A stretch of 64,000 bases of DNA from an uncultured Candidatus Saccharibacteria bacterium (GTDB lineage: Bacteria; Patescibacteriota; Saccharimonadia; Saccharimonadales; JAGQNJ01), in NCBI GenBank assembly GCA_964510945.1, contig CAZEED010000003.1, positions 16,222 through 80,221 of the forward strand, written 5' to 3'. The position numbers were made by a program, and so were the translations under genes. Of the stretch, positions 2,772-25,527 are shown piece by piece (within the stretch, counting starts at the first letter, position 1; each line of letters opens with the position of its first letter). The notes below the pieces were generated by a model. The model was not told the DNA's origin. It was given only the letters and a program-made list of their open reading frames with translations, and made no database searches.

Positions 2772-5549
2772 ATGAGTCAAGCAACCAGCTTAAGGGTTGA
2801 GAGGTTATTCACACAACCCAAAAAACGTGCGTATGATCAACTAAAATGGGTAAAAAGGGATTCTTTAATTGCAAATCCTTTTACTAAAGAACCTGTTTTT
2901 GAACAAAAAGGCGTGGATTTTCCAGACAGTTGGTCTCTCAATTCTATTAATATTGTGGCTCAGAAATATTTTACTGGGACTCCTGGGACTGATGAGCGAG
3001 AAAGCTCACTTCGCGACCTAATTGATCGAGTTGTTGATACTATCACGCGACATGGGCTTAGTGAAGACTATTTCGAATCAGATCAAGAGGCTGATATTTT
3101 TTCCGAAGAGCTAAAATACATACTGGCTACTCAACGCGCAGCCTTTAATTCGCCTGTTTGGTTTAATATTGGAGCTCCGAGTCGTTCTCAGCAGGCAAGC
3201 GCGTGTTTTATCTTGGGTATCGAAGACACTATGCCGGCAATACTGAATTGGTATAAAGAAGAAGGAATGATTTTTAAGGGCGGTTCTGGTTCAGGTATCA
3301 ATCTGAGTGGAATTAGATCATCAGTTGAAAAATTGGGAAAGAGCGCAGGTACAGCTAGCGGACCACTGAGCTTTATGAGGGGTGCTGACGCATCAGCAGG
3401 AGCAATAAAAAGTGGCGGAAAAACTCGTCGAGCCGCAAAGATGGTCATACTTAACATTGACCACCCAGATATTGAAGAGTTTATCTGGTGTAAGGCTATT
3501 GAAGAGCGTAAAGCTCGTGTTCTCGAAGAGAATGGTTTTGATATGAGTTTGGACGGGAAAGATTCTTTTTCTGTTCAGTACCAAAATGCCAATAATTCGG
3601 TGCGTGTGACAGATGAATTTATGCAAGCTGTAGAAAATGATGCCGACTGGGATCTTAAGGAAGTAAAAACCGGCAAAACGGTTAAAACACTAAAGGCCAG
3701 AGCGCTTTTCAGGCAATTAAATGAAGCTGCTTGGGAATGCGCCGACCCCGGAATGCAGTTTGATACCACAATTAATAAGTGGCACACCTGCCCGAATGCC
3801 GGAAGAATTAATGCCTCTAATCCGTGTAGTGAATACATGCATCTTGATAACTCGGCTTGTAATCTAGCGTCAATTAACTTGTTGAAGTATTTACGTGACG
3901 ATAATACTTTTGATGTGGAAGCTTTTAAACACACTGTAGAGCTAATCTTTACAGCTCAAGAGATATTGGTCGGTTATTCAGAGTATCCAACAGAGAGTAT
4001 TGGTAAGAATGCGCGTGCTTACAGAGAATTAGGCTTAGGCTACGCTAATTTAGGAGCGCTACTTATGGCTCAAGGCTTGCCTTATGACTCTGATGAAGGG
4101 CGCGCACAGGCGGCGGCGATAACTGCTTTAATGACTGGTCACGCTTATGCGACAAGCGCCAAGATTGCCCAGCGTGTTGGAACTTTCTCTGGTTTTCGAA
4201 AAGATAGAGAAGGAATGCTTAAAGTAATTGGAATGCATAGACAAGAGGTGTCAAAGATTGATCCAAGCCTAGTGTCTGAAGAGCTTTTAAGCGCTGCAGC
4301 GCATTCTTGGGACGAAGCAGTCCAATTATCCGAAATTCATGGTGTACGCAACTCACAAGCGAGCGTATTGGCTCCTACGGGCACAATTGGTTTGATGATG
4401 GATTGCGACACAACTGGTATTGAGCCAGACCTAGGACTTGTTAAGGTCAAGAAGCTAGTAGGTGGTGGAACGATGCACATCGTGAATCAGACAGTACCTC
4501 GCGCACTTAACGCTATGGGTTACTCAAAGCAACAGATTGACGATATCGTGGGCTACATAGATGTAGAAAAGACTATCATTGGCGCGCCACACCTAAAAGC
4601 TGAGCATGTAAATGTGTTTGCTTGTTCTATGGGTGATAACTCTATCCACTATATGGGGCACGTAAAGATGATGGGTGCTGTTCAGCCTTTCTTATCGGGT
4701 GCGATTAGTAAAACCGTTAATATGCCAGAAGAAGCAGATGTTGAAGCTATCGAACAACTTCATATTGAATCTTGGAAACTTGGGCTGAAGGCTGTGGCGG
4801 TTTATCGTGATAACTGTAAGGTTGGTCAACCTCTCGCGATGGCGAAAAAGGCTGGTTCAGAAGATAAAGATAAGACTACAGATGTAGCTACGACAATAAC
4901 TGCTTCAATCGAAGACAAGTTTATCCTTAAAGGTGGGGCTCTTCGTAGGAGTTTGCCAAAAACTAGGACAGCTAAGACTTTTTCTTTCAGAGTTGCAGAT
5001 AGTCATGGCTATATGACGGTTGGAGAATACGAAGATGGAACTGCCGGCGAGATATTCGTAAATGTGAGCAAACAAGGCTCAACTCTACGAGGTATAATGG
5101 ACGCTTTTGCGATTAGTGTAAGCCACGGACTACAGTTTGGCGTACCGCTAAAGGATTATGTTAAGTCATTTACTAGTATGTCCTTTGCTCCATCAGGTAT
5201 AACCGATGATCCAGAAATACGTACGGCAACTTCGCTGATAGATTACATTGCTAAGAAGTTGGCAAACGAATACCTATCATTCGACGATCGTCTAGAGCTG
5301 GGTCTGGCATCGATTGATGATATGCCTGAAGCCCAAACTTCACTAGAGGTGGACAGCCAATCAGCCGTTGTTGAACCAGCAGTTGAGCAAAATACAGAGA
5401 TAATCATCCAAGAAACAGAACAAGCCGTTGTTGAAAAGTCATCATCTGATGATACTGCGCCACTATGCTTTAACTGTGGTAACCAAACTCAACGCTCTGG
5501 CAGTTGTTATGTGTGCACATCTTGTGGCTCGACCACTGGCTGTAGCTAG
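2772..5549 (+). CDS. nrdJ: Class II (adenosylcobalamin-dependent) ribonucleotide reductase
   Basis: 925 aa with active-site region ASNPCSEYMHLDNSACNLASINL. C-terminal Cys cluster CFNC...CYVCTSC. RBS GTGAGGG. Confidence 0.9.
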   Translation: MSQATSLRVERLFTQPKKRAYDQLKWVKRDSLIANPFTKEPVFEQKGVDFPDSWSLNSINIVAQKYFTGTPGTDERESSLRDLIDRVVDTITRHGLSEDYFESDQEADIFSEELKYILATQRAAFNSPVWFNIGAPSRSQQASACFILGIEDTMPAILNWYKEEGMIFKGGSGSGINLSGIRSSVEKLGKSAGTASGPLSFMRGADASAGAIKSGGKTRRAAKMVILNIDHPDIEEFIWCKAIEERKARVLEENGFDMSLDGKDSFSVQYQNANNSVRVTDEFMQAVENDADWDLKEVKTGKTVKTLKARALFRQLNEAAWECADPGMQFDTTINKWHTCPNAGRINASNPCSEYMHLDNSACNLASINLLKYLRDDNTFDVEAFKHTVELIFTAQEILVGYSEYPTESIGKNARAYRELGLGYANLGALLMAQGLPYDSDEGRAQAAAITALMTGHAYATSAKIAQRVGTFSGFRKDREGMLKVIGMHRQEVSKIDPSLVSEELLSAAAHSWDEAVQLSEIHGVRNSQASVLAPTGTIGLMMDCDTTGIEPDLGLVKVKKLVGGGTMHIVNQTVPRALNAMGYSKQQIDDIVGYIDVEKTIIGAPHLKAEHVNVFACSMGDNSIHYMGHVKMMGAVQPFLSGAISKTVNMPEEADVEAIEQLHIESWKLGLKAVAVYRDNCKVGQPLAMAKKAGSEDKDKTTDVATTITASIEDKFILKGGALRRSLPKTRTAKTFSFRVADSHGYMTVGEYEDGTAGEIFVNVSKQGSTLRGIMDAFAISVSHGLQFGVPLKDYVKSFTSMSFAPSGITDDPEIRTATSLIDYIAKKLANEYLSFDDRLELGLASIDDMPEAQTSLEVDSQSAVVEPAVEQNTEIIIQETEQAVVEKSSSDDTAPLCFNCGNQTQRSGSCYVCTSCGSTTGCS

Positions 5550-5581
5550 ATAATAGTTTTCGGAGATGATATTCTGGGGTT

Positions 5582-5851
5582 ATGAAAGTGATTGTGCTTT
5601 ATAGACCCCAGTCAGAACACGGGACCATGGTAGAACAGTATGCGAGAGATTTTCTTCACAGGACTTCTCGGGCATTAGAATTACTTGATATTGATTCAAA
5701 AGAAGGCGTCAGATTGGCTGAACTCTACGATATAGTCAGTTATCCAACGGTTATCGCTTTGGATAACAGCGGTCAGCTGGTTAGCAGCTGGGTGGCTAGC
5801 GAAACTATGCCGTTAATCGACGAAGTGTCTGCGTATCTTGTTGAACGGTAG
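5582..5851 (+). CDS. Small thioredoxin-fold-like protein lacking the CxxC motif
   Basis: 89 aa. The pattern KVIVLY...YDIVSYPTVIALDNSG resembles thioredoxin beta1 and the cis-Pro loop. The protein contains no cysteine. Confidence 0.45.
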   Translation: MKVIVLYRPQSEHGTMVEQYARDFLHRTSRALELLDIDSKEGVRLAELYDIVSYPTVIALDNSGQLVSSWVASETMPLIDEVSAYLVER

Positions 5852-5875
5852 GTGTTTATAGGGTATATTTATGGC

Positions 5876-6090
5876 TAGTAAGAAATTACTACAATCCGTT
5901 ATTAGTAGCTATCAACTACAATCAGCTAAGAACTGAACGGATGCGAAAAGAAATTGCAAAAATGCAAGATTAGACTTCGCCGGGTTTGCCCGATATAGCA
6001 ATTAACTAAGTGCTTTTGAGATCACCTCAAAGGAATCTGGATGGTACCTCCGTCAGCTGGCGGATCCAGAGTAGCCTTTGAGGTATTTTT
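5876..6090 (+). promoter_or_regulatory. T-box-like riboswitch leader upstream of cupin-ileS
   Basis: AAUCUGGAUGGUACCUCCG (6034-6052) resembles the T-box consensus AAUUAGGGUGGUACCGCG. An antiterminator-like fold is present: CUGGA[UGGUACC]UCCG-loop-CGGAUCCAG. An upstream stem (5894-5900/5936-5942) carries an AGUA/GAA internal loop. A T-run follows at 6086-6090. Putative promoter TTGAAC-17-TATATT at 5841-5869. Confidence 0.65.
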
Positions 6091-6107
6091 AATTACAGAG
6101 GAAAAGT

Positions 6108-6461
6108 ATGAAAAAATGGTCAGACGAAGATGGCGTAGAGTTTCACAACAGTGATATCTGTTTTGGGCGAGAGTTTAAACCTGATACGGATAAGATTGAT
6201 ATCGCTAAGGTAATGATAAGAGGTGAGTTTCCGGACAAGAACCGGTGGGGATATTTGGAAGAATCTCATGAGATGGCCGTGGTTATAAAAGGCGAGGGTT
6301 ACATCATGACCAAGGAGGGTGAGCGTCAAAAGCTAAAAACTGGCGACGTGGTATACATTGAACCTTTTGAGCGATTTCGTTGGGGTGGCGATATGGATCT
6401 AATAGTGCCATGTGGACCAGCGTTTGATCCTAAAAAACACAAAATTGAGGAGTCTTTATGA
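6108..6461 (+). CDS. Cupin-fold small protein
   Basis: 117 aa. The pattern HEMAVVIKGEG...GDVVYIEP is typical of the cupin_2 barrel. Its stop overlaps the ileS start (ATGA). Confidence 0.6.
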   Translation: MKKWSDEDGVEFHNSDICFGREFKPDTDKIDIAKVMIRGEFPDKNRWGYLEESHEMAVVIKGEGYIMTKEGERQKLKTGDVVYIEPFERFRWGGDMDLIVPCGPAFDPKKHKIEESL

Positions 6462-9367
6462 GTGGTGAGCAAAAATCAAACTTAGCAAAAATCGAAGAAG
6501 CAGTTCTTGCCAAATGGCAAGCAGAAAAGACGTTCGAGAAGAGTATCGAGCAACGTCAAAGTAAGCCATACTTCAGTTTTTACGATGGTCCGCCGTTTGC
6601 TAATGGCTTGCCGCACTTCGGCCATAGTTTAGTTACTAGCATCAAAGACTCGGTTTTACGCTATAAAACAATGCAGGGCTATTACGTACCTAGGCGTAAC
6701 GGCTGGGATTGTCATGGTTTACCAGTAGAGTTTGCAATTGAAAAAGAATTTGGTGTTAGTGGTAAGAAGCAAATTCTAGAACTAGGTCTAGAGAAGTTTA
6801 ACAACGCTTGTAACGACTCAATCTTTAAGTACAAAGGCGAGTGGGAAGTATTGTTGCAACGTTTAGGGCGGTGGAGTGAGTACGACCATTACTATGCGAC
6901 TGTTGATAACAGCTACACCGAGAGTGTTTGGTGGGCTATGTCTCAGATTAACGATAAAGGTTTGCTATACCGTGGCTTCAAGAGTACGGCCTACTGCCCA
7001 CGATGCGAAACACCACTGTCAAACTTTGAGGTTAATGATGGTTATAAAGATAATGTGCCTGATCCAAGTTTATACGTGAAGTTCAAGTTGGTTGATGAAG
7101 ACGCTTATTTACTTGGTTGGACCACTACCCCATGGTCGTTACCTGGAAATGCGGCCATTGCGGTCAATTCAGAAGAGAAGTACGTGTATGTGCGTCTAAC
7201 AGGTGGCGACGGTAAAGAGGAAGTACTGGTGTTGGCTCAAAAACGCTTGGAAGTTCTAACGAGCGATGACTTCCATATAGAGAAAGAAGTTCATGGTCGT
7301 GATCTTGTTGGCCTAGCCTATAAACCTTTGTTTGAAGTCGACCAAGCACAGACTGCTGAAAGTAGAGAGAGTCTCTATAAAGTATGGGCGGCAGATTTTG
7401 TAAGTATTGATGATGGAAGCGGGGTGTTGCATGTGGCGCCGGCTTTTGGCGAGGACGATCTTAACCTTGGTCAAGCTAATAACATCCCTGTTCTGAAAAC
7501 GATTGATGCTAGCGGTAAAGTTGTTGCCGGTATTGGCTTTGATGATGTTAAGGGTAAGTTTTTTAAGTCAGCCGATAAGTATATCATCGAGCATTTAACA
7601 CAGCAGGGACAAGTGTATTCAGCCGAGACATTTACGCACACCTATCCGTTTTGCTGGCGGTGCGAGACACCTCTGATGTACTACGCAATCTCAAGTTGGT
7701 TTATAGGCGTCTCTTCTATTCGTGACCAACTCATAAAAACAGCTGAAGAAATTAACTGGGTGCCAGAGCACATTAAGACAGGGCGTTTTGGTAAATGGCT
7801 AGAAGGTGCTCGAGATTGGGCAGTTTCACGTAACCGTTACTGGGGAGCACCTATGCCAGTCTGGGTTAATGAAGATGATGAGGACGATTATTTGGTTATT
7901 GAAAGCTATGACCAACTTCGTGAGCTTGCCGGTCAACCAGAACTTGATCTCTCGGACGTTCATCGTCCAAAGGTCGACGATGTTGTGATTAAAAAAGATG
8001 GAAAAACCTATCGTCGTGTCGAAGAGGTGATTGACTGTTGGTTCGAATCAGGCTGTATGAGCATTGGCCAACAACACTATCCATTTGAGAATAAAGAAAC
8101 TTTTGAAAAGAGTTTCCCAGCTGATTTTATAATTGAAGGATTAGACCAAACTCGTCTTTGGTTTTATGTCCAGCATGTCGTTAATACGATTTTGTTTGAC
8201 CGACCCGCCTACAAGAATGTTGTTGTAAACGGTATGATTATGGCGGCCGATGGGCAGAAGTTATCAAAGCGACTCAAGAACTATCCGCCCGTCGAAGAAG
8301 TGTTTCAAGATGAAGGGGCCGATTCGTTGCGTCTGTTCTTGCTATCAAGTACACAGGCTACCCAGACAGCTGACTATATGCGTTTTGATCGCATGGCACT
8401 AAAAGATCTCAATCGTAATGTGCTAGGTACATTAATGAATTCTTACCGATTCTTTAAAATGTACGCAGATATTGATAATTGGAAGGCGGCACAACCTGGT
8501 AGGCAACCGCAAAGTACTAACGTACTTGATCAATGGATTATTGCGCGCTTGAACGAGACAATAACAGAGACAACACGGCAGGCCGATGATTACAAGATTG
8601 CCCACGCTATTCAGCCGATCTTTGCTTTGATCGATGATATGAGCAATTGGTATATCCGACGTTCACGTCGACGTTTTTGGAAAAGTGAAGATGATAGCGA
8701 TAAGGAGCAAGCTTACGAGACACTGTGGTATGTGCTTGTTCGTCTCTGTCAGCTTTTAGCACCATGGGCACCATTCTTGAGCGACCACCTGTGGCGAGAG
8801 CTGACTGCCGGTACAAAATTGCCGATTTCTGTTCATCTGAGCGATTGGCCAGAGGCTGAGATTCAATCTGACAGCAATCAAGTTATTGAGAAAATGCAGA
8901 GTACCCGACAGATTATTAACGACGCCCTATCTCAGCGCGGTGAAGCAAAAATAAAAGTTCGGCAACCACTCGGTAAAATTACTGTTAAAGGATTACAGGA
9001 TAGTGTAGATAAGGCATATCTCGACATTATCAAGGATGAAGTTAACGTACATGAAGTAGTTTTTGGTAAAGACACAAAACTCGACATCAAGATAACTCCA
9101 GCTTTGTACCGCGAAGGGTTGATGCGAGAGATTGTGCGACACGTACAAAATGCTCGTAAAAAGGCTGAGTTGAATGTTGATGACAGAATTGAGCTATCGC
9201 TTGAGACAAGCCATAAAGAAACGTTTCAGGCTATAAATGAACATAAAGCTACTATCGCAGCCGAAACACTAGCTACACAACTAAATACTGAATCAAAACC
9301 ACTAAAATATTCGGAAACTGTTAATGTAGAGGGCGCGGAGCTCAAGATAAGCCTACAAAAAGCCTGA
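6458..9367 (+). CDS. ileS: Isoleucine--tRNA ligase
   Basis: 969 aa with HIGH-type motif PHFGH, KMSKS-type KLSKRL and a CP1 editing region. Confidence 0.97.
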   Translation: MSGEQKSNLAKIEEAVLAKWQAEKTFEKSIEQRQSKPYFSFYDGPPFANGLPHFGHSLVTSIKDSVLRYKTMQGYYVPRRNGWDCHGLPVEFAIEKEFGVSGKKQILELGLEKFNNACNDSIFKYKGEWEVLLQRLGRWSEYDHYYATVDNSYTESVWWAMSQINDKGLLYRGFKSTAYCPRCETPLSNFEVNDGYKDNVPDPSLYVKFKLVDEDAYLLGWTTTPWSLPGNAAIAVNSEEKYVYVRLTGGDGKEEVLVLAQKRLEVLTSDDFHIEKEVHGRDLVGLAYKPLFEVDQAQTAESRESLYKVWAADFVSIDDGSGVLHVAPAFGEDDLNLGQANNIPVLKTIDASGKVVAGIGFDDVKGKFFKSADKYIIEHLTQQGQVYSAETFTHTYPFCWRCETPLMYYAISSWFIGVSSIRDQLIKTAEEINWVPEHIKTGRFGKWLEGARDWAVSRNRYWGAPMPVWVNEDDEDDYLVIESYDQLRELAGQPELDLSDVHRPKVDDVVIKKDGKTYRRVEEVIDCWFESGCMSIGQQHYPFENKETFEKSFPADFIIEGLDQTRLWFYVQHVVNTILFDRPAYKNVVVNGMIMAADGQKLSKRLKNYPPVEEVFQDEGADSLRLFLLSSTQATQTADYMRFDRMALKDLNRNVLGTLMNSYRFFKMYADIDNWKAAQPGRQPQSTNVLDQWIIARLNETITETTRQADDYKIAHAIQPIFALIDDMSNWYIRRSRRRFWKSEDDSDKEQAYETLWYVLVRLCQLLAPWAPFLSDHLWRELTAGTKLPISVHLSDWPEAEIQSDSNQVIEKMQSTRQIINDALSQRGEAKIKVRQPLGKITVKGLQDSVDKAYLDIIKDEVNVHEVVFGKDTKLDIKITPALYREGLMREIVRHVQNARKKAELNVDDRIELSLETSHKETFQAINEHKATIAAETLATQLNTESKPLKYSETVNVEGAELKISLQKA

Positions 9368-23832: not shown

Positions 23833-25527
23833 ATGAAATATTCACAATTATTTGGAAAAACCTCAAAAAACGAGGGCATAGACTACAAGATTGACTCGCA
23901 TCGTTTGCTAACCCAAGCAGGGTTTATCCGCGAGTCTACGGCTGGTAGGTATTACTTATTACCTTTAGGGCTCAAAGTCCATGACAAGATAATCAATATA
24001 GTACGGAATCGCATGAATAGGGCAAGTGCTCAGGAAATTGTTACTCCTGTACTTCATCCTCTGGAAATCTGGAAAGAGACCAACAGAACAGATACAACGG
24101 GCTTTGAGCTGATGAAAATAACCGACCGCCGCGGCGCTGATTTTGTGTTGGGTGGTACCGCTGAAGAAATGATTGTAGATTTGGTACGTAAATTCAATAT
24201 TAGCTATAAAGATTTGCCTTTCAACTTATATCAATTTTCGATGAAGTTTCGCGATGAAATGAGGGCGCGTGGTGGTTTATTGCGTGTTCGAGAGTTTATC
24301 ATGAAAGACGCTTATAGCTTTAGTACTGAAGAGCAGTTCAAAGAAATTTACCAACAGATGTGGGACGTTTATAAGGAAATATTCAATGAGCTAGGCTTAA
24401 AAACCGACGTTGTTGCAGCTGACAATGGATATATCGGTGGTGAATATTGTCACGAATTTGTAGCAGAAACAAAAGTTGGGGAGAGCACGTACTTTACGAC
24501 AGAAGATGGCAAATATGCTGCGCATGAGGACGTTGCAACCTTTAAATATGATATCCAAAAAAGCGATGAAGCCGAATTGCCAATGGAAGAAGTCGAGGGT
24601 AAAGGTATTGTTGGTGTCGATGAATTAGCGAGATTCTTGAAGATAACTCCTCGGCAAACAACAAAGACTATTTTGTTTGAGGACGAGCAGGACAGAGTGG
24701 TCGCTGCAGCTGTCCGTGGTGACTTTGATATTAACGAGACAAAATTACAATCGATAGTTCAGGGCTCACCACTATCGTTAGCATCAGCAGAAACTGTAAA
24801 ACGCGTTACTGGAGCAGAAGTTGGTTACGCGGGTTTGCTCAATTTGCCAAAAGACGTTGTCGTGATTATGGATGAGTCTATGCGGGATAGGAGAAACTTT
24901 GAAATGGGCGCCAATCGCACTAATTACCACTCTGTAAATGTTAATTTTGGTCGTGACTTGGAAGAACCAAAAAAATTCTATGACATTAAACTTGCAAAAG
25001 CAGGCTACATAGCACCAACAGGACAGAAAATGATAGAAAGAAAGGGGATAGAGGTAGGTAATATCTTTCAGTTAGGATATCACTACAGTAACCTAATGAA
25101 AGGAGCAGAGTATACTGATGAATCTGGGGCTCGACAGAAGTATTACATGGGTTGCTACGGGATTGGTATAGGGCGAACGATGGCAGCAATCGCCGAAATT
25201 CACAGCGATGACCGCGGGATTATTTGGCCAGAAAATGTTGCTCCATTTCGGGTATATTTAGCTTGTTTAGGGAACGAAAAGCAGGTTGTAGATACGGCTG
25301 ATGAGGTATATAAAACCCTTCAAGATGAGGGTATAGAAGTCCTCTATGATGATAGAGATGTGCGTCCTGGTGAGAAGTTTGCTGATGCTGATCTGATTGG
25401 TATCCCTCATCGGGTTGTTATTAGCGCAAAAACCGTGGAAGCAGGCAAGTACGAGTATAAAAAACGAACTGAAAAAGATACTGGATTACTTACTATTGAA
25501 CAACTATTAAAAAAACTAGCCAGCTAG
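23833..25527 (+). CDS. proS: Proline--tRNA ligase (bacterial type with insertion domain)
   Basis: 564 aa with class II motifs, an INS-like middle region and a C-terminal anticodon-binding domain. Confidence 0.96.
   Translation: MKYSQLFGKTSKNEGIDYKIDSHRLLTQAGFIRESTAGRYYLLPLGLKVHDKIINIVRNRMNRASAQEIVTPVLHPLEIWKETNRTDTTGFELMKITDRRGADFVLGGTAEEMIVDLVRKFNISYKDLPFNLYQFSMKFRDEMRARGGLLRVREFIMKDAYSFSTEEQFKEIYQQMWDVYKEIFNELGLKTDVVAADNGYIGGEYCHEFVAETKVGESTYFTTEDGKYAAHEDVATFKYDIQKSDEAELPMEEVEGKGIVGVDELARFLKITPRQTTKTILFEDEQDRVVAAAVRGDFDINETKLQSIVQGSPLSLASAETVKRVTGAEVGYAGLLNLPKDVVVIMDESMRDRRNFEMGANRTNYHSVNVNFGRDLEEPKKFYDIKLAKAGYIAPTGQKMIERKGIEVGNIFQLGYHYSNLMKGAEYTDESGARQKYYMGCYGIGIGRTMAAIAEIHSDDRGIIWPENVAPFRVYLACLGNEKQVVDTADEVYKTLQDEGIEVLYDDRDVRPGEKFADADLIGIPHRVVISAKTVEAGKYEYKKRTEKDTGLLTIEQLLKKLAS

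Follow-up and report, generated by a model that had tools for sequence, protein, structure and literature searches.

An isoleucine T-box leader with a predicted nested terminator upstream of the cupin-ileS operon of Candidatus Saccharibacteria

The sequence analysed here, termed the window, is a 64,000-nt stretch of the forward strand of contig CAZEED010000003.1 from an uncultured Candidatus Saccharibacteria bacterium, and all coordinates are given on its plus strand. Upstream of a cupin gene and of ileS, the gene for isoleucine--tRNA ligase, the window carries a leader at about 5876-6090 which, judged by its sequence and by those of its relatives, is a genuine T-box. It is probably an isoleucine-specific T-box of the ultrashort-Stem-I type, regulating the cupin-ileS operon by an attenuation of transcription in which Stem III and a terminator compete. 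Related loci, designated by L-numbers, were fetched by similarity of their isoleucyl-tRNA synthetase (IleRS) proteins, and 43 leaders were included in the comparisons, 30 of them assigned to class 1 and 13 to class 2 according to the arrangement of the terminator.

Identity, specifier and conservation of the leader

The IleRS search retrieved loci from uncultured Candidatus Saccharibacteria/Saccharimonadia with 54-84% identity to the window IleRS. A UGGUACC element was found upstream of ileS in 42 of the 45 Saccharibacteria-type loci, mostly 70-120 nt from the ileS start and farther away where genes intervene. No T-box was found upstream of ileS in the other three, all labelled as Saccharibacteria (L011, L014 and L047); the IleRS of L047 is far more distant, with 40% identity. 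The T-box leader is widespread, though not universal, upstream of ileS in Saccharibacteria. It is the rule there, and the doubt of the preliminary description of this DNA, that T-boxes should not be assumed for genomes of the Candidate Phyla Radiation (CPR), did not hold for this group. The same leader was present in L041 (Candidatus Woesebacteria) and L076 (Candidatus Limnocylindria, Chloroflexota), whose IleRS are 64-66% identical to that of the window; either these contigs were mis-binned or the element exists outside Saccharibacteria.

An Rfam scan of the whole 64-kb window at gathering thresholds gave no match at all, T-box included. Run in E-value mode, the T-box model RF00230 aligned over its full length (model 1-219 to 5880-6071; 38.1 bits, E 3.6e-7, 351 nt searched), and the sole large deletion was in distal Stem I, where 41 model positions are reduced to 7 nt. 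This score is far under the gathering cut-off of 93, and related Saccharibacteria leaders score 34-40 bits. Because the clostridial L080, a canonical ileS T-box whose terminator is a textbook one, also fails, at 76 bits, the cut-off is unfit to judge membership here. The sub-threshold score, which the preliminary description had named as a refutation of its T-box claim, is therefore not usable as such, and the claim itself is upheld by the full-length match, the recurrence of the leader among relatives and the covarying helices described below. The leader folds more stably than shuffled sequences (z = -3.2). In its discriminator half it follows the canonical pattern published for this domain, 5'-RRRxG, Stem III, AA-3' (PMC7583486), with a purine string AAGUG, Stem III, AA, A1, the bulge and A2. 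The elements of the leader are as follows.

5894-5942, plus strand: Stem I, lower helix 5894-5899/5937-5942, with the specifier hairpin and an additional, clade-specific hairpin inside it
5905-5919, plus strand: specifier hairpin, GUAG 5905-5908, 7-nt loop CUAUCAA 5909-5915, CUAC 5916-5919
5922-5936, plus strand: inserted hairpin UCAG-CUAAGAA-CUGA, pairing UCAG 5922-5925 with CUGA 5933-5936, in the window and L001 only
5943-5980, plus strand: Stem II, lower helix GCGAA 5943-5947/UUCGC 5976-5980 and upper hairpin UUGCA 5954-5958/UGCAA 5963-5967
5981-6007, plus strand: Stem IIA hairpin and linker, CGGG 5981-5984/CCCG 5989-5992
6008-6035, plus strand: Stem III module, purine string AAGUG 6008-6012, strand X CUUUUGAG 6013-6020, loop 6021-6025, strand Y CUCAAAGG 6026-6033, AA 6034-6035
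6036-6070, plus strand: antiterminator, A1 6036-6041/6065-6070, bulge UGGUACC 6042-6048, A2 6049-6054/6059-6064, loop AGCU

The sequence elements named in the preliminary description were all present at their positions, including the helix 5894-5900/5936-5942, GAA-CUG-A at 5930-5936, AUCA at 5911 and 5921, and UUUGAG at 6015-6020, which lies within strand X.

The specifier codon AUC (5911-5913), followed by the purine A5914, lies in the heptaloop of the specifier hairpin. A 4-bp stem with a 7-nt loop YNAUCRN was found in all 43 leaders, with AUC invariant and a purine as the next base. Eight complementary versions of this stem were seen (GUAG/CUAC, GCGG/CCGC, GCAG/CUGC, GUGG/CCAC, CUGG/CCAG, UCGG/CCGA, UUGG/CCAA and ACGG/CCGU). 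Helix conservation was scored in an N-padded block alignment, with bulge and specifier loop as anchors, which covers the specifier stem, A1, A2 and the outer helix of the terminator; here the specifier helix was 100% paired, with double changes at three of its four pairs. Since the AUC heptaloop is invariant, has a counterpart in Nocardia farcinica and precedes ileS, the specifier is, on sequence grounds, AUC (Ile), located in a terminal and not in an internal loop. The first ~40 nt of the extracted leaders L024, L032 and L038 contain a partial tandem duplication of the specifier hairpin, e.g. CGAUUGGUUAUCAA-CGAUUGGUUAUCAACCAA, with two successive AUC copies.

Stem I ends in the specifier heptaloop, and the distal elbow platform of interdigitated T-loops is absent. 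In most relatives the specifier hairpin is flanked by a kink-turn (K-turn) signature, UGA...GA(A), and the window and L001 have UUA...AA together with the inserted hairpin. The tandem G.A K-turn below the specifier hairpin is thus a feature of the family that has been lost in the window (5900-5904, 5920-5921), and a three-way junction seems to replace it in the window and L001. The L001 insert has the loop UUCAAUAA and the segment AAUAACUGA, without GAA; the insert that L030 carries at this site of Stem I is unrelated, and about 38 leaders have no insert.

Stem II has an internal loop, AAGAAA (5948-5953) opposite GAUUAGAC (5968-5975), that corresponds to the S-turn region, and the motif pair AAGAA ... 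A(G/U/C)UAGA(A/C), with covarying flanking helices, recurs throughout the leader family. The RF00230 alignment also puts Stem II at 5943-5980 and agrees on the placement of Stem IIA. A candidate IIB pseudoknot, UUGC 5986-5989/GCAA 5998-6001, was read from the window sequence only.

Ultrashort ileS T-boxes are known from Mycobacterium tuberculosis, Mycobacterium smegmatis and N. farcinica (PDB 6UFM, 6UFG; PMC10651847, PMC12647780), and the sequence of the crystallised N. farcinica T99 aptamer is given in Supplementary Table 2 of PMC10651847. Its decoding domain is collinear with that of the Saccharibacteria leaders: GA-CCGG-CCAUCAC-CCGG-GGA in T99 corresponds to UGA-GYGG-CUAUCAA-CCRC-GA, the Stem II motifs GGAAGAAC ... 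AGUAGAACC occur in both, and CGGGU(A/G)AGCCCGUCACAGC is common to T99 and the relatives L002 and L010, in which Stem IIA/B is nearly identical (CGGGUGAGCCCCGUCACAGC in T99, CGGGUAAGCCCGUCACAGC in L002 and L010). Most relatives are 48-62% identical to the T99 decoding domain, and the window, the most divergent, is 38% identical. The very short upper Stem I, likened in the preliminary description to actinobacterial ileS T-boxes, is confirmed by this collinearity and by the distal Stem I deletion. Cultivated Saccharibacteria grow on Actinobacteria. As Actinobacteria are the usual hosts of Saccharibacteria and the decoding domains of the two are so close, a transfer of ileS together with its leader between host and epibiont is conceivable.

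The T-box sequence AAUCUGGAUGGUACCUCCG is located at 6034-6052 and folds into the antiterminator. Helix A1 pairs CUGGA (6037-6041) with UCCAG (6065-6069) and is lengthened to 6 bp by U6036-A6070, while A2 pairs UCCG (6049-6052) with CGGA (6061-6064) and reaches 6 bp with U6053.G6060 and C6054-G6059. The bulge UGGUACC is invariant in the 43 leaders. A1 occurs in 12 complementary versions, and A2 is likewise variable; in the block alignment A1 was 100% paired, with double changes at five of six pairs, and A2 98.8% paired, with double changes at four of four. The comparison of related ileS leaders proposed in the preliminary description thus gave a conserved bulge, covarying A1 and A2 helices (double changes at nine of their ten pairs) and AUC as the specifier throughout, in agreement with the antiterminator that had been read there. 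UGGU (6042-6045) would pair with the tRNA 3' end ACCA, which implies a discriminator A73, and tRNA-Ile(GAU) presumably carries this A73, fitting the bulge. In published T-boxes the pair that closes A2 at the bulge is described as a conserved G.U wobble and as the chief element by which the aminoacyl group is sensed sterically. At this position (window 6049/6064, alignment columns 51/62) the window clade of seven leaders has U-A, 14 leaders have G-C, and G.U is found in 18 of 41.

Taken together, the four helices of the block alignment were paired in 96.6% of cells, with double changes at 22 of 24 pairs; the percentage leans towards structure because complementarity guided the placing of the A1 and outer-helix 3' strands. 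The covariation score was 0.617, compared with 0.220 in shuffles (0 of 500 reached the observed value), and sliding the 3' partners by 1-3 columns left no more than 0.137.

A second TGGTACC, at 24153 (UUGGGUGGUACCGCUG, window 24140-24165), is near the consensus and was considered as another T-box; it lies inside a 564-aa open reading frame (ORF) at 23833-25527 and was rejected as a coding coincidence (Gly-Gly-Thr).

The nested terminator and the proposed switch

Downstream of the Stem III loop, the following structure was identified.

6024-6090, plus strand: nested terminator, outer helix ACCUCAAAGG 6024-6033/CCUUUGAGGU 6075-6084 (the latter termed strand Z), followed by A and by UUUUU 6086-6090

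The 10-bp outer helix surrounds the antiterminator, which stays intact, and has the 3' strand of Stem III as its own 5' strand, so that X and Z are alternative partners of Y. Folding gave -32.2 kcal/mol for the outer helix with the antiterminator and -23.2 for Stem III with the antiterminator, 9 kcal/mol apart, and an RNA ending at 6074, in which the last strand is unmade, folds as Stem III plus antiterminator. When the 30 class-1 leaders were folded singly, all showed Y, before A1, paired with Z, after A1, in a helix of 6 bp or more that left the 6 bp of A1 whole. The read-out is thus odd in the way pointed out in the preliminary description, an outer helix and U-run in competition with the upstream UUUGAG. 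Double changes were found at all 10 pairs of the outer helix in the block alignment. An alignment-free test gave the same picture: the 12 nt preceding A1 gave -12.7 +/- 3.0 kcal/mol when paired with the 24 nt downstream in the same leader and -4.6 +/- 2.0 when paired with such a segment from leaders that differ from them in the upstream strand at five positions or more, the own partner being best in 29 of 30. In 27 of the 30 class-1 leaders, a run of at least four U begins no more than about 2 nt from where the helix ends; in L005, L006 and L030 the run is interrupted.

Strands X, Y and Z change together between species, and both pairings therefore appear to be selected in the window clade. 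In the window clade and in 16 of the 30 class-1 leaders, X pairs better with the Y strand of its own leader than with any foreign one, indicating a true Stem III.

Canonical terminators are built from the 3' strands of A1 and A2 (PMC7583486). No good downstream partner of this kind was found in the window for the 3' half of the antiterminator, which pairs at a mere -6.8 kcal/mol, and A1 is intact in the full-length fold; a canonical terminator was rejected. The controls were 26 T-boxes from metagenomes, taken from the matches listed for the Stem II motifs (17 high-GC/actinobacterial-like and 9 low-GC), a scan in which there were no Saccharibacteria among the matches listed. The full-length fold breaks A1 in all 26, and the A1 3' strand re-pairs downstream in 23, as in the canonical mechanism.

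These observations suggest the following model, in which the A1/A2 helix would be stable and kept in both states and the Stem III module would be the part that switches. The anticodon of tRNA-Ile(GAU) would pair with AUC 5911-5913 in the heptaloop, propped by the Stem II S-turn and Stem IIA/B as in the actinobacterial structures, and the free ACCA end with UGGU 6042-6045 of the bulge. During transcription, Stem III (6013-6020/6026-6033) and the antiterminator would form first. With uncharged tRNA bound, Stem III would stay stacked on A1, latched by the purines AAGUG and AA; held in this way, it would prevent 6075-6084 from capturing 6024-6033, and transcription would read through into cupin-ileS. 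With no tRNA or with charged tRNA, Stem III would be loose, Z would displace X, and the outer helix would close before the U-run, with transcription stopping near 6090. Stem III is described as indispensable for binding of the tRNA 3' end (PMC7583486), and single-molecule work of 2025 on the M. tuberculosis ileS T-box showed Stem III moving off the antisequestrator with a charged-tRNA mimic (PMC12647780).

Several observations weigh against this attenuation model, besides the low RF00230 score and the leaning of the pairing percentages mentioned above. Fast capture of tRNA is said to require, as a rule, a long Stem I in transcriptional T-boxes (PMC7583486), and the window leader has none. Scans for tRNA genes in the 64-kb window and 45 related loci found none. 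A terminator scan does not list 6024-6090, its loop limit of 3-8 nt making it blind to nested hairpins, and over 40 kb of the window it gave no enrichment above shuffles, so that the use of intrinsic terminators by this organism is an assumption. When discriminator and terminator were aligned by plain MAFFT, the A1 3' and Z strands came out of register, and RNAalifold retrieved no helix beyond part of A2. The window clade has U-A in place of the G.U steric-sensor pair that closes A2. Stem III is reduced to 2-3 bp or fewer (CC/GG or CCA/UGG) in about 14 of the 30 class-1 leaders (L012 type, L008/L009 and L025/L029/L035), and its strand exchange consequently cannot be the whole story for the family. 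Finally, the 13 class-2 leaders (L019-L022, L024, L026, L027, L032, L033, L038, L040, L042 and L043) have a separate hairpin, (G)ACACCGC...GCGGUGU(U), with a U-run directly 3' of A1, overlapping it by 3 nt at most. A GUGUC in the purine-string region of class 2 is complementary to GACAC.

The last two observations would favour the main rival of this model, itself rather unlikely, in which the nested terminator is real and Stem III is dispensable. The T-box-tRNA complex on A1, 2-4 nt above the outer helix, would block closure sterically or by stacking in the polymerase exit channel. The class-1 leaders with a vestigial Stem III still keep the outer helix and U-run, and the class-2 terminator abutting A1 suggests a competition for the place below A1 rather than extensive re-pairing. 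However, the joint changes of X, Y and Z in the window clade point to selection on both pairings, the outer helix invariably takes its 5' strand from the Stem III region, and the known structures put the tRNA on the inner end of A1, with the terminator helix at its outer end (PMC7583486).

Translational control, in which an alternative fold would mask the first gene's ribosome-binding site and the U-run would be incidental, appears quite improbable. This is the mode of all ultrashort-Stem-I T-boxes described so far, a class defined by a terminal-loop specifier and ileS regulation (bioRxiv 10.1101/2023.02.28.530422). A short Stem I is thought unsuited to kinetic, transcriptional control (PMC7583486), and CCUC (6025-6028) in the Y strand is complementary to a Shine-Dalgarno sequence. 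The Shine-Dalgarno sequence of the cupin gene (6098-6101), however, lies outside every conserved helix and 8 nt past the U-run, and across the 43 leaders the U-run follows the helix, with the Shine-Dalgarno sequence 10-25 nt farther. Nor does the 3' strand of the antiterminator have a complement near it, and the downstream re-pairing of the A1 3' strand seen in the high-GC controls is absent here.

It is highly improbable that the leader is a decayed T-box relic, with the hairpin and U-run acting as a constitutive attenuator or as a mere stable structure. The window clade has indeed lost the GA/GA pairs of the K-turn (UA/AA instead) and the G.U pair closing A2, and its decoding domain is the one most divergent from N. 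farcinica, but the specifier loop, bulge, purine string and helices are kept with compensatory changes across IleRS identities of 54-84%, and a constitutive terminator before an essential single-copy ileS would be deleterious. Hardly any weight can be given to an internal Specifier Loop (AGUA ... GAA-CUG-A) sensing tRNA-Leu(CAG), or to an ambiguous specificity, since the GAA-CUG-A segment (5930-5936) from which the preliminary description preferred a Leu codon CUG, and which does resemble a glyQS-type specifier loop followed by a stem, with GAA placed there by the RF00230 alignment, belongs to the hairpin insert of the window and L001, whereas the AUC heptaloop that it set aside is invariant, homologous to the crystallised Ile loop and located upstream of ileS.

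Relation to known T-boxes

The Saccharibacteria leaders resemble the ultrashort actinobacterial ileS T-boxes in their ileS target, in AUC followed by a purine in the 7-nt loop of a 4-bp hairpin, in the lack of an elbow platform, in the Stem II S-turn motifs GGAAGAAC/AGUAGAACC and the Stem IIA/B sequence CGGGU(A/G)AGCCCGUCACAGC, and in the RRRxG-Stem III-AA and UGGUACC elements; the terminal position of the specifier, in the hairpin loop of Stem I, has also been noted for actinobacterial Ile T-boxes in the TBDB preprint. They differ from that class in their CPR host and in a read-out by hairpin and U-run, predicted to act by attenuation and not by sequestration of the Shine-Dalgarno sequence. 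Their alternative helix takes the 3' strand of Stem III and leaves A1/A2 intact, whereas the actinobacterial-like controls break A1. The window clade further adds a Stem I hairpin, lacks the GA/GA K-turn and closes A2 with U-A. Accessory genes, a cupin gene in the window, are placed between leader and ileS.

With the canonical transcriptional T-boxes (RF00230; Bacillus subtilis tyrS and glyQS) they share the position in the leader of an aminoacyl-tRNA synthetase gene, the order of Stems I, II, IIA (with a candidate IIB) and III and the antiterminator, the UGGN bulge, and an OFF state formed by a terminator-like hairpin with U-run, whose stability exceeds that of the ON state. The differences are the truncated Stem I, the specifier in a terminal loop, a terminator that encloses A1/A2 instead of using their 3' strands, and a score below the gathering cut-off. 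The decoding domain is thus of the ultrashort ileS type and the read-out of the Firmicutes transcriptional type, a combination apparently undescribed in the accessible literature. A search for T-boxes in Saccharibacteria, Patescibacteria or the CPR found none in the literature, a search incomplete for key papers, so that an earlier description is possible.

A tentative, though quite possible, extension of the attenuation model is that these leaders represent a distinct T-box platform, with a permanent antiterminator, charging read through Stem III docking and transcriptional control without an elbow platform. It would be the first conserved riboswitch-type regulator described for CPR/Patescibacteria, with an actinobacterial-like decoding domain and a possible transfer of ileS and leader.

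The operon and its significance

The leader lies between a promoter-like site and the cupin gene, with these further features in the window.

5841-5869, plus strand: promoter-like site, -35 TTGAAC 5841-5846, 17-nt spacer, -10 TATATT 5864-5869, sigma-70-like, of putative function
5876-5891, plus strand: 5' hairpin UAGUAA-GAAA-UUACUA opening the leader in the minimum free energy fold, clade-specific (found in L030 but not in L001)
6098-6101, plus strand: Shine-Dalgarno sequence GAGG of the cupin gene, 6 nt before ATG 6108 and 3' of the U-run
6108-6461, plus strand: cupin-fold ORF of 117 aa, first gene of the operon, its stop codon overlapping the ileS start (ATGA)
6458-9367, plus strand: ileS, isoleucine--tRNA ligase of 969 aa, NCBIfam TIGR00392 883.5 bits (cut-off 621), Pfam tRNA-synt_1 and Anticodon_1

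The promoter-like site predicts a transcript start at about 5876, and its -35 box overlaps the stop codon of the upstream ORF at 5582-5851. A TTGAAC-17-TATAYT/TACAAT layout was also visible in the L001, L002, L004 and L010 leaders.

The cupin reading of the first operon gene, made in the preliminary description, is matched by borderline Pfam scores (Cupin_2 27.0 bits, cut-off 27.2; Cupin_3 23.9 bits, cut-off 23.5). Its homologues form 68 clusters with 61-100% identity and lengths of 114-139 aa, and by sequence conservation it is a real, conserved small protein. The cupin gene was placed between T-box and ileS, just 5' of ileS, in every context examined. The syntenic block has the order class II ribonucleotide reductase, small ORF, T-box, variable genes, cupin, RibD_C in some cases, ileS, L21 and ParA. 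The reductase and the conserved small ORF (86-126 aa, without Pfam match; 5582-5851 in the window) were always 5' of the T-box (window 2772-5851; L081, L084, L087); L087 also has NrdR upstream, and its reductase was called as two ORFs.

Passenger genes found elsewhere between the ileS T-box and ileS encode a HAD hydrolase, a NUDIX protein with a SnoaL-like protein, RibD_C and a 121-aa ORF; the passenger is an SGNH-like hydrolase in L009 (2251-2847) and a P-loop protein in L028 (2469-2999), with further contexts in L081, L084 and L087. The closest relatives, L001, L002, L003, L010 and L030, have no gene between leader and ileS. Since passenger genes vary or are absent among lineages, the T-box-controlled operon appears to have repeatedly gained and lost them, and those present would be co-regulated by tRNA-Ile charging.

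CPR gene regulation is virtually unknown, and Saccharibacteria appear to draw building blocks from their host (PMC11665869); a sensor of tRNA-Ile charging before ileS would therefore report the host isoleucine supply inside the epibiont. The leaders place T-box regulation in the CPR and, if attenuation is their mode of action, contradict the generalisation that an ultrashort Stem I is translational and that transcriptional T-boxes have a long one. They are natural sequences for testing fast tRNA capture without elbow contact, and, if the model is true, the switch would be built directly on the Stem III movement seen with charged tRNA. The standard Rfam cut-off misses all these leaders, and a dedicated model would annotate them. 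The leader is also a compact native regulatory part for the emerging genetics of Saccharibacteria. It is still a T-box before a synthetase gene, with a mechanism that is predicted, and for CPR biology it would be a first conserved RNA sensor.

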